A stretch of DNA of 64,000 nt from Escherichia phage Bf23: the sequence record OR083247.1, one strand, 5' to 3'. Below the pieces are notes generated by a model, which saw nothing but the letters and a program-made list of their open reading frames with translations, was not told the DNA's origin and searched no databases. The position numbers and the translations under genes are program-made. Of the stretch, positions 61,999 through 63,541 are shown one piece after another. Position 1 is the stretch's first letter. Every line of letters starts with the position of its first letter.

Positions 61999-62781
61999 TT
62001 GATGAAAATCGAAATTCCAACACAATGTCCCTCTTGTGGTTCTAAGCTAGATCTTGTCAACGGACAATTATTTTGTCGTAATAAGTCCAACTGTCCAGCG
62101 CAATCAAGTAAGTTAATTGAGAACTTCTGTACAAAAATGAAGTTAAAGGGTTTTGGCCCGAAAACTATTGAGAAGCTGGAGCTGACGAAGATTTCAGAAC
62201 TATTTTACCTAACCGAAGAAGATTTGGTTAGAGCCGTGGGTAGCAAGGTTGCCGCTAAGTTAATTAGCGAATTAAATACTAAAGTTCGCGGAGACATTGA
62301 CTTTGGTTCAGTTCTCGGTTCTTTAGGAATCTCTCTAATTGGAGAGGTTGCAGCAAAGAAATTATCCCAAAATTGCACTAGCTTCCACGATGTGAAGGCT
62401 GACGGCAAGGCTGGAGAAAACTATAAAGCCTGGCTAAATTCCCCACAAGGCAAGGATGTTATCGAATTACCGTGGAAATTCACAACTGGTATTAAAGGTG
62501 CTAAAGCTGACATCATCATTACTGATGGTCTAGTAGCCCAACCAAACGGAATAACGGTATGTATTACCGGATCTTTGCAAGATTTTGCAAATAGAACGGA
62601 TGCAACAAACTATTTAGAAGGTCTAGGATATACGGTTAAGAAATCCGTTACCAAAGACGTCAAATACCTAATCTGTGAGGATGAATCGAAGCGTTCTTCC
62701 TCATCTTATAAGAAAGCCGAAACGAATGGGATAGAAATCCTGTCGATTAAAGAACTATTGGAGAAAAATAATAATGTCTAA
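61999..62781 (+). CDS. ligB: NAD-dependent DNA ligase, C-terminal subunit (zinc finger, HhH, BRCT-like)
   Basis: 260-aa ORF; 'CPSCGSKL...CRNKSNCPAQ' zinc finger followed by HhH-like and BRCT-like segments. Confidence 0.65.
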   Translation: MMKIEIPTQCPSCGSKLDLVNGQLFCRNKSNCPAQSSKLIENFCTKMKLKGFGPKTIEKLELTKISELFYLTEEDLVRAVGSKVAAKLISELNTKVRGDIDFGSVLGSLGISLIGEVAAKKLSQNCTSFHDVKADGKAGENYKAWLNSPQGKDVIELPWKFTTGIKGAKADIIITDGLVAQPNGITVCITGSLQDFANRTDATNYLEGLGYTVKKSVTKDVKYLICEDESKRSSSSYKKAETNGIEILSIKELLEKNNNV

Positions 62782-63541
62782 ACTGAACTGGAACGTAGAA
62801 GGTGTAACCGAGTCTCTGAAAGCAAAAGCCACTGCTCTGGGTGTTGATGTAATCTCTCAAGAACAAGTAGCTGCTATCGCCGCTGAACTGGCTGCTGAAA
62901 CTGGCAAAGACGTTACCGCTCGCTCTGTTGGCTCTAAGCTGCGTAAAGAAGGTTTCGAAGTACAGAAAGCTAACGAAGTACAGAAATCCCCGTGGACTCC
63001 TGAGCAGGAAGCTGAACTGGTTGATTTCCTGAACGCTCACGCTGGTCAGTATACCTATGCTGAAATCGCTGCTGCTGTAGCTGGTGGTCAGTTCGGTGCT
63101 AAACAGGTACAGGGTAAGATCCTGAGTCTGGAAATGACCGCTTCTGTTAAACCAACTGAAAAAGCTGCTGCTGTTCGTTCCTTCACTCCGGATGAAGAAA
63201 CTGATTTTGTTAATCAGGTTGTTGCTGGTGCTACTATTGAAGCTATCGCTGCTCACTTCGGTCGTAATATCAAGCAGATCCGTGGTAAAGCTCTGAGCCT
63301 GCTTCGTGAAGGTCGTATCGCTGCTATGCCGGTACAGGAAACCTCAAGTGCTAAAACTCGTGAAGATCTGTTAGAAGGTCTGGATCTGGTTAACATGACT
63401 GTTGCTGAGATCGCTGAGAAAACTGGTAAATCTGAGCGCGGTGTTAAATCTATGCTGTCTCGTCGTGGTCTGGTTGCTAAGGACTATGATGGTGCCGCTA
63501 AGCGTGCTAAACTGGATGCAAAAGCTGCGGCTGCTGAATAA
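62774..63541 (+). CDS. protein built of four tandem ~55-residue repeats, putative DNA-binding
   Basis: 255-aa ORF; repeats share 'E(I/V)AAxxG...(K/R)xxxGKxLSL'; strong bias to ctg/gct/gaa codons unlike neighbours. Confidence 0.55.
   Translation: MSKLNWNVEGVTESLKAKATALGVDVISQEQVAAIAAELAAETGKDVTARSVGSKLRKEGFEVQKANEVQKSPWTPEQEAELVDFLNAHAGQYTYAEIAAAVAGGQFGAKQVQGKILSLEMTASVKPTEKAAAVRSFTPDEETDFVNQVVAGATIEAIAAHFGRNIKQIRGKALSLLREGRIAAMPVQETSSAKTREDLLEGLDLVNMTVAEIAEKTGKSERGVKSMLSRRGLVAKDYDGAAKRAKLDAKAAAAE

Follow-up and report, generated by a model that had tools for sequence, protein, structure and literature searches.

The question raised by this locus is what kind of protein is encoded by a single ORF, lying behind a ligase gene, whose codons are unlike those of the genes around it. 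In the window, i.e., the whole 64,000-nucleotide stretch of phage DNA analysed here, the first-pass annotation had marked this ORF as a protein of four degenerate repeats with host-like codon usage, and had offered two accounts of it: a very abundant DNA-binding protein, or a recent host-adapted acquisition.

Identity and genetic context of the ORF

The sequence identifies the ORF as D5, a bacteriophage T5 gene that has been known for a long time. The encoded protein is identical to T5.118 (YP_006946.1) at 255/255 amino acids, with equal length, so that at the protein level there is no difference from T5 D5. A PHROG scan places it in phrog_323 ("transcriptional regulator, D5-like") with an E-value of 1.2e-71 across residues 1-253, which is full-length similarity to the T5 D5 protein family (PHROG 323). 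At the DNA level the gene is 99% identical to those of T5-like phages, the closest records being ESCO30 and FFH1, and in these relatives it is annotated as D5, as a transcription factor or as a DNA-binding protein. The window comes from a T5-like phage (Tequintavirus), a relative of T5, and the finding of D5 in it is ordinary and already known.

The features of the locus are collected in Table 1. As far as can be read from the DNA, the layout is that of two strong early promoters (P-K28b and P-K28a), followed by ligB, D5 and a hairpin terminator. The promoter region is identical at 210 of 211 positions to the T5 stretch annotated with these two promoters. The stop codon of ligB overlaps the start codon of D5 (ATGTCTAA), and since a consensus scan found no promoter-like site between the two genes, they are probably expressed as one transcription unit. 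The terminator stem (63559-63587) has 13 pairs, 8 of them G-C, closed by a 3-nt loop, and the 61-nt stretch that contains it has a folding energy of -24.8 kcal/mol; the strong terminator first noted behind the ORF is this GC-rich 13-bp hairpin with its TTTTT tract.

Table 1. Features of the ligB-D5 locus, in window coordinates
Feature	Coordinates	Strand	Details
Sigma-70 promoter-like TTGACA-17-TATACT	61850..61878	+	Upstream of ligB; 11/12 consensus matches; corresponds to T5 early P-K28b
Sigma-70 promoter-like TTGCTA-17-TATAAT, extended -10 TG	61943..61971	+	Corresponds to T5 P-K28a; consensus scan
ligB, NAD-dependent DNA ligase subunit B	62002..62781	+	ORF list; T5 and FFH1 annotation
Shine-Dalgarno-like GGAGA	62760..62764	+	9 nt upstream of the D5 ATG; read from sequence
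D5 CDS	62774..63541	+	255 aa, ATG start, 27.1 kDa, pI 6.3
Repeat 1 (R1)	62774..62983	+	Residues 1-70; helices 11-22, 29-43, 49-58
Repeat 2 (R2)	62984..63175	+	Residues 71-134; helices 76-88, 95-101, 109-118
Repeat 3 (R3)	63176..63361	+	Residues 135-196; helices 139-150, 155-162, 166-178
Repeat 4 (R4)	63362..63538	+	Residues 197-255; helices 210-217, 221-231; basic C-terminal helix 240-254
Intrinsic terminator	63559..63592	+	Hairpin AAGGGGAGGGGGC-TAT-GCTCCTTCCCCTT, then TTTTT

The same arrangement is found in T5, where D5 sits between ligB and the D6 helicase behind the same upstream promoters. Indeed, the order ligB-D5-helicase is common to T5, the E. coli phage FFH1, the Proteus phage PM135 and the Vibrio phage Chester, and in PM135 the ligB-D5 pair is flanked by the same promoter pair and by a terminator hairpin of the same geometry. 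This is the position typical of the D5 family: within the early replication cluster, immediately behind ligB and ahead of the genes for the replicative helicase, primase and polymerase.

Codon usage and the origin of the gene

No other ORF in the window is as codon-biased as D5. Its codon adaptation index (CAI), calculated with the Sharp and Li weights for E. coli, is 0.736, which ranks first among the 86 window ORFs of at least 80 aa (mean 0.269, sd 0.098). When the D5 protein was resampled 2000 times with synonymous codons drawn from the codon usage of the window, the CAI averaged 0.313 and reached 0.412 at most (z = 17). Two measures that are independent of the weights gave the same picture. 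Nc (Wright) is 29.2 against a window median of 46.5, and the raw counts show a marked preference for single codons: CTG for 17 of 19 Leu residues (0.89 vs 0.17 in the other window ORFs), GCT for 38 of 44 Ala (0.86 vs 0.43), CGT for 10 of 12 Arg, GGT for 17 of 19 Gly, ATC for 9 of 10 Ile and GAA for 20 of 25 Glu. The codon usage is thus host-like and unlike that of the neighbours, as the first-pass annotation had it. In the whole T5 genome D5 again ranks first, with a CAI of 0.695 among 127 ORFs; the values for the major head protein, D3 and D11 are 0.630, 0.560 and 0.554, respectively. The major head protein and D11 are bulk T5 proteins with the same codon trend as D5. An antisense ORF of 169 aa (62747-63256, minus strand) was discarded as an artefact of the biased codons of the coding strand.

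The base composition of D5 is less distinctive than its codons. The neighbours had been described as AT-rich, and this holds for total G+C, which is 0.478 in D5 vs 0.391 in the window. It does not hold at third positions, where GC3 is equal in D5 and in the other window genes (0.336 vs 0.341). The extra G+C sits in the first two codon positions and stems from the 17% Ala content of the protein, and from Gly.

E. coli-optimal codons that set a gene apart from its neighbours, combined with elevated G+C, could mark a gene recently taken up from the host or an element adapted to it. For D5 we find this origin scarcely credible, and the suggestion is given up. Parity in GC3 speaks against it, as does the result of a blastn search of 5,426 complete E. 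coli genomes, which returned 0 matches to D5. The 902 phage records that contain homologues are without exception T5-like in size and naming, and the Escherichia, Proteus and Vibrio phages examined share the gene order ligB-D5-helicase. Moreover, the orthologues in PM135 and Chester have the lowest Nc of their own neighbourhoods (36.8 and 30.4, respectively), yet they favour other Leu codons, TTA (0.64) in PM135 and CTA (0.70) in Chester, instead of the CTG of the window gene. The codon trend shared with the T5 major head protein and D11 also argues against a foreign origin. Finally, the repeats of D5 carry no trace of recent duplication at the DNA level, where a repeat search found only short matches of 60-80% identity, which are due to the reduced codon vocabulary of the gene (GCTGCTGCT). 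We infer that D5 owes its codon bias to selection for rapid translation at high yield with the tRNAs of the host.

Four HTH modules

D5 is composed of four degenerate HTH repeats, all four of which are backed both by profile comparison and by an AlphaFold2 model. The units begin at about W6, W74, F137 and L199, which gives a period of 62-68 residues, so that the repeat length of ~55 residues given at first was an underestimate. In profile-profile comparisons, R2 and R3 are related with a probability of 96% (E 4e-9), and the pairs R1/R2, R1/R3, R1/R4 and R3/R4 with 46-61% (E about 1e-4); the R2/R4 match is weak. All 6 pairs exceeded column-shuffled profiles (z 3.2-16.4), and for 5 of them 0 of 60 shuffles reached the observed score. 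When single sequences are compared, the signal is limited to R2/R3 (z 8.4) and R1/R4 (z 3.3).

The predicted structure is all-helical, with a mean pLDDT of 94.3, and the four HTH modules account fully for the 255 aa. Each of R1, R2 and R3 has three helices with pLDDT above 90; in R4, a 3-residue helical turn precedes two long helices, with one C-terminal helix after them. The pTM of 0.56 means that the mutual arrangement of the modules is undefined in the model. The linkers between the four modules, of 15-25 residues, are conserved. Helix 3 is basic in every repeat (+2 to +4), and it is there that most of the invariant residues cluster. These include R50, K55, L56 and R57 in R1, whose third helix reads ARSVGSKLRK, then Q113, G114, K115 and L117 in R2, which has a Myb-like WTPEQE start, and G171, K172 and L174 in R3. 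The charge of helix 1 differs between repeats: in R2 and R3 this helix is acidic (-4), in R1 it carries +1. With an overall charge of -1 and a pI of 6.3, the protein as a whole is not basic, unlike many DNA-coating proteins. The neighbouring gene D3 contains the same module as repeat 1 of D5.

Relation to known HTH families and to sigma-70 region 4

Every D5 repeat matches some HTH family of Pfam in at least some members of the D5 family. Among 71 members, Sigma70_r4_2 was matched in 65, HTH_23 in 39 and Myb in 17 (the last at E < 0.01). In the window protein, Sigma70_r4_2 (PF08281) matches R4 at residues 204-230 with 28.6 bits, above the gathering cutoff of 25.7; R3 matches HTH_23 (homeodomain-like); and Myb (PF00249) matches residues 71-100 with 17.6 bits, below its cutoff of 24.4. 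In the AlphaFold2 model R1-R3 have the three-helix bundle of Myb/SANT domains, with the HTH formed by helices 2 and 3. Of the Myb Trp triad, conservation is restricted to the first aromatic (W6, W74 and F137).

Searches of the PDB gave a similar view. With Foldseek there was no match at E < 0.1, and the four-module architecture had no counterpart among the solved structures; the best matches were 6taz (Timeless), 1u78 (Tc3) and 3hos (Mos1), with TM-scores of about 0.2. A sequence search of the PDB with the single D5 protein found nothing significant (best E 0.56), and the family profile found a weak match, confined to R1, to 1y66, a 52-residue "engrailed homeodomain" chain (E 5e-4). A designed variant of that chain, 2p6j, was also weakly matched at R1. 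The D5 profile recovers long multi-repeat Myb-like proteins with E-values of about 1e-14 to 1e-17.

The match of R4, found in nearly all family members, invites the proposal that D5 acts mainly on RNA polymerase, with R4 mimicking sigma-70 region 4 and either binding the beta-flap or competing at -35, and thereby redirecting the host polymerase from early to late genes. According to PMC7472727, T5 uses the host sigma-70 polymerase throughout and the switch between early and late classes is unexplained, which leaves room for such an activity. We nevertheless judge it very unlikely. The Sigma70_r4_2 match is limited to a 27-residue HTH stretch, and matches of the same quality link the other repeats to unrelated HTH families. 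A Pfam search for sigma region 2 (Sigma70_r2) gave no match in D5 at E <= 1; the protein has the region 4 HTH but neither a region 2 nor a region 3 architecture, and it is not a sigma factor. In the parts of PMC7472727 covered, the T5 protein named as associated with RNA polymerase is gpT5.026, and neither "gene D5" nor "gpD5" occurs in the paper. Moreover, stoichiometric binding to RNA polymerase would not need abundance at the level of the capsid.

Abundance and mode of action

The T5 RefSeq note describes D5 as a DNA-binding protein on which DNA replication and late transcription depend, and which has a part in the shutoff of earlier genes. For dsDNA binding and the roles in replication and late transcription, the sources are this note and the title of a 1979 paper by McCorquodale et al. 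that PMC12630848 cites. In a 2023 paper, D5 is "very abundant" in lysates of T5 and BF23, where it is among the most intense protein bands and comparable on gels to structural proteins (PMC10644984). It is not part of the virion and is missing from purified BF23 particles (PMC10644984). D5 is also among the proteins with >100 spectral counts in particle preparations of phage phiR2-01 (PMC8624392); the packaging in virions at which these data hint was set aside because of the purified BF23 virions that lack it. Published gels and mass spectrometry agree with the codon proxy in marking D5 as a high-abundance protein. Together with the RefSeq annotation, they uphold the first of the two original accounts, that of a very abundant DNA-binding protein. 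D5 is scarcely treated in the open-access literature that was searched. The paper on the T5 D2 helicase does not mention it, and in the DRT4 paper the DNA-binding T5 trigger is ORF55, not D5.

Many records label D5 a "putative transcription factor". Taken together with its HTH modules, including the one resembling sigma-70 region 4, and with the late-transcription and shutoff phenotypes given by RefSeq, this label would suit a classical sequence-specific factor with defined operators at early and late promoters, its four modules reading a long composite site. However, the codon adaptation of D5 exceeds that of the major capsid protein and its gel band is like those of structural proteins, which implies a copy number well above what a site-specific regulator requires, and we hold this reading to be improbable. 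It is compatible with coating of the DNA by D5, in that there may be preferred nucleation sites.

Our conclusion is that D5 of T5-like phages is very probably a bulk early protein that binds dsDNA through four tandem three-helix HTH modules. D5 would accumulate in bulk early, its codon bias serving fast translation with host tRNAs. The four recognition helices would contact successive stretches of the duplex, so that accumulating D5 would coat the phage DNA largely without sequence specificity. In biochemical work of 1979-1983, D5 reportedly binds duplex DNA cooperatively. Coating of the template, and not action at a few operators, may be what ties together replication, early shutoff and the switch to late transcription.

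A more tentative reading, less likely than not, is that D5 belongs to a kind of phage "chromatin" protein new to structural work, in which one chain carries four Myb/sigma-4-like HTH modules joined by conserved linkers and polymerises on the phage duplex. Its rising concentration could serve as a timer for shutoff of early promoters and as a licence for replication-coupled late transcription, and the small, highly codon-adapted D3 could be its one-module paralogue partner.

The main value of the analysis is as a sanity check, in which codon usage in raw sequence pointed correctly to the early T5 gene with the highest expression; beyond that its importance is modest. D5 is an abundant, essential and structurally unsolved DNA-binding protein that is central to the question of the T5 early/late switch. 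Experimental handles are provided by the model of four HTH modules and the conserved residues of their third helices, by the repeat-1 module shared with D3, and by the conserved promoter-ligB-D5-terminator unit.

Comparison with known DNA-binding proteins

In architecture, the closest parallels are the R1R2R3 region of c-Myb, the DNA-binding domain of Timeless and the bipartite HTH of Tc3/Mos1, which like D5 consist of tandem three-helix modules with an aromatic-x-x-E-E start. D5 is distinguished from Myb/SANT and homeodomain-like HTH arrays by having four modules with conserved linkers.

In function, the parallels are phage proteins of other families; scans of D5 against Pfam (E <= 1) and PHROG (E <= 0.1) gave no HU/IHF-type or phi29 p6-type family. 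TF1 of Bacillus phage SPO1 is an abundant type II DNA-binding protein of the HU family, and resembles D5 in being phage-encoded, abundant and tied to replication and late gene expression. It differs in having the HU/IHF fold and acting as a dimer, whereas D5 is all-helical with four HTH modules. The p6 protein of Bacillus phage phi29 is small, devoid of HTH repeats and unrelated to D5 by sequence or profile. It is, however, a very abundant, early, histone-like protein that coats dsDNA and is needed for replication and for the early-to-late switch, and this mode of action is the one that we propose for D5.

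Identity and genomic setting of D5

The translated ORF at 62774-63541 (+) is identical in 255 of 255 residues to the product of T5 gene D5 (T5.118). Megablast of the 768-nt ORF matched 510 phage records, 424 of them within 95-99% identity (top, 99.0%), in which the product is labeled "D5 protein," "putative transcription factor" or "DNA-binding protein"; its PHROG match is phrog_323, "transcriptional regulator, D5-like" (E 1.2e-71). The local gene order, D2, D3, ligA, ligB, D5, replicative helicase, primase and DNA polymerase, is that of the T5 early replication cluster. By every testable criterion the protein belongs to the T5 D5 family, and the window to a T5-like phage. 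The gene was previously known and annotated, with a T5 RefSeq note that reads [quoted passage not shown]. The first-pass annotation had suggested a very abundant DNA-binding protein, a reading supported by this identity and by published abundance, with DNA binding taken from the RefSeq entry. What we add is the quantification of a genome-top codon adaptation, an apparent host-tracking in distant orthologues, conserved operon signals, a link to D3, and statistical and structural backing for four helix-turn-helix (HTH) modules.

Codon usage and its probable origin in selection for expression

The host-like codon bias claimed for D5 is confirmed and is extreme. D5 uses CTG for 17 of 19 Leu, GCT for 38 of 44 Ala, CGT for 10 of 12 Arg, GGT for 17 of 19 Gly and ATC for 9 of 10 Ile, compared to family shares of 0.17, 0.43, 0.42, 0.46 and 0.27, respectively, across the remaining ORFs of the window. 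Its codon adaptation index (CAI), computed with the Sharp & Li weights for E. coli, is 0.736 and ranks first of the 86 ORFs with 80 aa or more (mean 0.269, sd 0.098). Synonymous resampling of the protein from the window's own usage gave a mean of 0.313 and a maximum of 0.412 (z = 17 for D5). Wright's effective codon number (Nc), which is independent of any reference set, is 29.2, compared to a median of 46.5. Across the whole T5 genome D5 again tops the 127 ORFs (0.695; mean 0.266); next in rank are pb8, the major head protein (0.630), D3 (0.560) and D11 (0.554). Separately, an uncharacterized "hypothetical protein" of 171 aa, equivalent to T5.089, ranks fourth in the window (0.474) and fifth in T5 (0.495); going by its codon usage, it may be a further early protein made at a high level.

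The same bias could have come with a recently acquired, host-adapted gene, the other origin proposed at first pass, but several observations lead us to reject this. The contrast with AT-rich neighbors stands for overall G+C (0.478 versus 0.391) but not for third positions, where D5 is phage-like (GC3, 0.336 versus 0.341); the excess falls at the first and second codon positions and stems from an alanine content of 17%. Blastn at "distant" sensitivity against 5,426 complete E. coli genomes gave no match. Tblastn hits to the protein came from 902 phage records, each about 105-128 kb long, with Escherichia, Salmonella, Klebsiella, Proteus, Vibrio, Aeromonas and Pectobacterium as hosts. Moreover, the order ligB-D5-helicase-primase-polymerase is retained in representatives of Novosibvirus and Thalassavirus, and there the orthologues again have the lowest Nc of their neighborhood (36.8 in Proteus phage PM135, 30.4 in Vibrio phage Chester), although their preferred Leu codon is not CTG but TTA (0.64) and CTA (0.70), respectively. 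Finally, A-ending codons read by phage UNN-anticodon tRNAs make up 0.11 in D5 versus 0.29 in other genes, so that translation of D5 depends more on tRNAs of the host. The codon bias of D5 is thus best explained by selection for expression, not by recent acquisition; judged by codon choice, the same highly expressed gene appears to have adapted to its own host in each lineage. In the window itself 20 tRNA genes are clustered, and many of them have UNN anticodons, which read A-ending codons.

D3 is second to D5 in the window (CAI, 0.559) and third in T5, and in T5 is preceded by promoter P-N26. Comparison of the family profiles (hhalign, D3 residues 1-72 versus D5 residues 1-70; probability 90%, E 1.5e-6) shows that the D3 N-terminal domain, about 70 residues long, is a homologue of the first D5 repeat. 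One HTH module is therefore common to the two most codon-adapted early genes.

A probable ligB-D5 transcription unit

The start of D5 is overlapped by the ligB stop (ATGTCTAA), with GGAGA 9 nt 5' of the ATG, and no promoter-like site was found between the two genes. Two strong sites lie ahead of ligB, in a region identical at 210 of 211 positions to the T5 stretch annotated as P-K28b and P-K28a. The NAD-dependent DNA ligase is encoded by two genes, and the 200-nt spacer between them harbors both promoters; thus ligB is probably transcribed with D5, not with ligA.

The strong terminator described after D5 is indeed present (Table), with a folding energy of -24.8 kcal/mol for the 61-nt stretch, and is not annotated in T5 RefSeq. 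In PM135, ligB-D5 is flanked by the same promoter-like pair and by a hairpin (L005, 12783-12811) that keeps the 13-pair, 3-nt-loop geometry of T5 despite several base changes in both arms (AAGGGAGGAGGGC...GCTCTCCTCCCTT versus AAGGGGAGGGGGC...GCTCCTTCCCCTT), which suggests, from sequence comparison, that the structure is conserved. Chester has a single promoter-like site and lacks a canonical terminator. T5 RefSeq places the D6 start within the hairpin (68109, corresponding to window position about 63573), whereas the helicase of the T5-like phage FFH1 is annotated to start at window position about 63630; the T5 D6 start is probably annotated too far upstream.

Table. Features of the D5 region and of the D5 protein (helices from the AlphaFold2 model)
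Feature	Position	Strand	Description
tRNA cluster	27296-34574	-	20 genes
T5.089 equivalent	41038-41553	-	171 aa
D3	59637-60047	+	136 aa; "DNA binding protein" in T5 RefSeq
ligA	60828-61799	+	
Promoter-like site	61850-61878		strong; TTGACA-17-TATACT; ahead of ligB
Promoter-like site	61943-61971		strong; TTGCTA-17-TATAAT with TG; ahead of ligB
ligB	62002-62781	+	
Terminator hairpin	63559-63587		13 pairs, 8 GC, 3-nt loop, then TTTTT
R1 helices	residues 11-22/29-43/49-58		
R2 helices	residues 76-88/95-101/109-118		
R3 helices	residues 139-150/155-162/166-178		
R4 helices	residues 210-217/221-231		two long, preceded by 3-residue helical turn
C-terminal helix	residues 240-254		basic

D5 is built of four HTH modules

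Profile alignment and the structural model uphold four repeats (R1-R4, starting at about W6, W74, F137 and L199), but their period is 62-68 residues, not the ~55 first estimated. Smith-Waterman comparison of the single sequence separates only two pairs from background, R2/R3 (z 8.4, 0/500 shuffles) and R1/R4 (z 3.3). In profile-profile comparison based on an alignment of 71 family members (identity down to 49%), R2/R3 reached 96% probability (E 4e-9) and R1/R2, R1/R3, R1/R4 and R3/R4 reached 46-61% (E about 1e-4), with R2/R4 weak; the pairwise alignments spanning whole units are consistent in register. All six pairs scored above column-shuffled profiles (z 3.2-16.4), and in five of them none of 60 shuffles reached the observed score.

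The AlphaFold2 model has a mean pLDDT of 94.3 (pTM 0.56). Every unit has a basic third helix (+2 to +4). Of the first helices, those of R2 and R3 are acidic (-4) and that of R1 is not (+1). Most invariant residues sit in third helices (R50/K55/L56/R57, Q113/G114/K115/L117, G171/K172/L174 and L228), and R230/R231 are nearly invariant across the alignment. An HTH-like segment had correctly been seen in each repeat: Pfam matched HTH_33 on R1, Myb on R2, HTH_23 on R3 and, above cutoff, Sigma70_r4_2 on R4, the last three in 17, 39 and 65 of the 71 members, respectively. No DNA-level duplication was found among the repeats, which are therefore old. Repeat number varies in the family, since two relatives, P0121 (309 aa) and P0183 (283 aa), carry five units, the additional one R2-like or R3-like.

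Relation to other families

D5 lacks sigma region 2 in Pfam and is therefore not a sigma factor. Its modules resemble Myb or homeodomain folds but do not reach the Pfam Myb threshold. Among solved structures none matched the four-module chain (best Foldseek E-value 0.11, TM about 0.2), and the hits were tandem-HTH proteins such as the Timeless DNA-binding domain, Tc3/Mos1 and LuxR-type regulators; in BFVD, global matches were D5 orthologues only. When 1.84 billion representatives were searched exhaustively with an HMM, 622 proteins passed E <= 1e-3 and 78 of them E <= 1e-30. Full-length proteins (about 233-262 aa) make up about 55 clusters, and the distant matches are long multi-repeat Myb-like proteins. 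Three partial "hypothetical proteins" from "Enterococcus faecalis" at NCBI (P0018, P0038 and P0298) match T5 D5 and D3 at 98-100% identity; they lie on contigs 531-669 nt long and most likely represent T5-like phage contamination of those assemblies.

Abundance and a proposed mode of action

The proteomic evidence that the first-pass annotation looked for is already published: D5 is very abundant in T5 and BF23 lysates but absent from purified BF23 virions (PMC10644984). In a phiR2-01 particle preparation, the T5.118 orthologue is among the proteins with > 100 spectral counts (PMC8624392). Given the BF23 result, this is most simply carry-over from the lysate.

Biochemical work of 1979-1983 (Rice et al., J Biol Chem 1979; Fujimura and Roop, J Virol 1983) reportedly described a ~29 kDa protein that binds duplex DNA cooperatively and affects T5 DNA polymerase at nicks. 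The identity, architecture, expression signals and abundance of D5 are established here; DNA binding and the need for D5 in replication, late transcription and shut-off come from annotation. We propose that the four basic recognition helices would contact successive stretches of duplex DNA, and that phage DNA may become coated as D5 accumulates. Replication, early shut-off and the late switch could then be coupled by coating of the template, not by a few operator sites. The main loose ends are a near-neutral net charge (-1, pI 6.3) and an inter-module geometry that is undefined in the model at its pTM. Coating by D5 would act much as does phi29 p6, although the two folds are unrelated.
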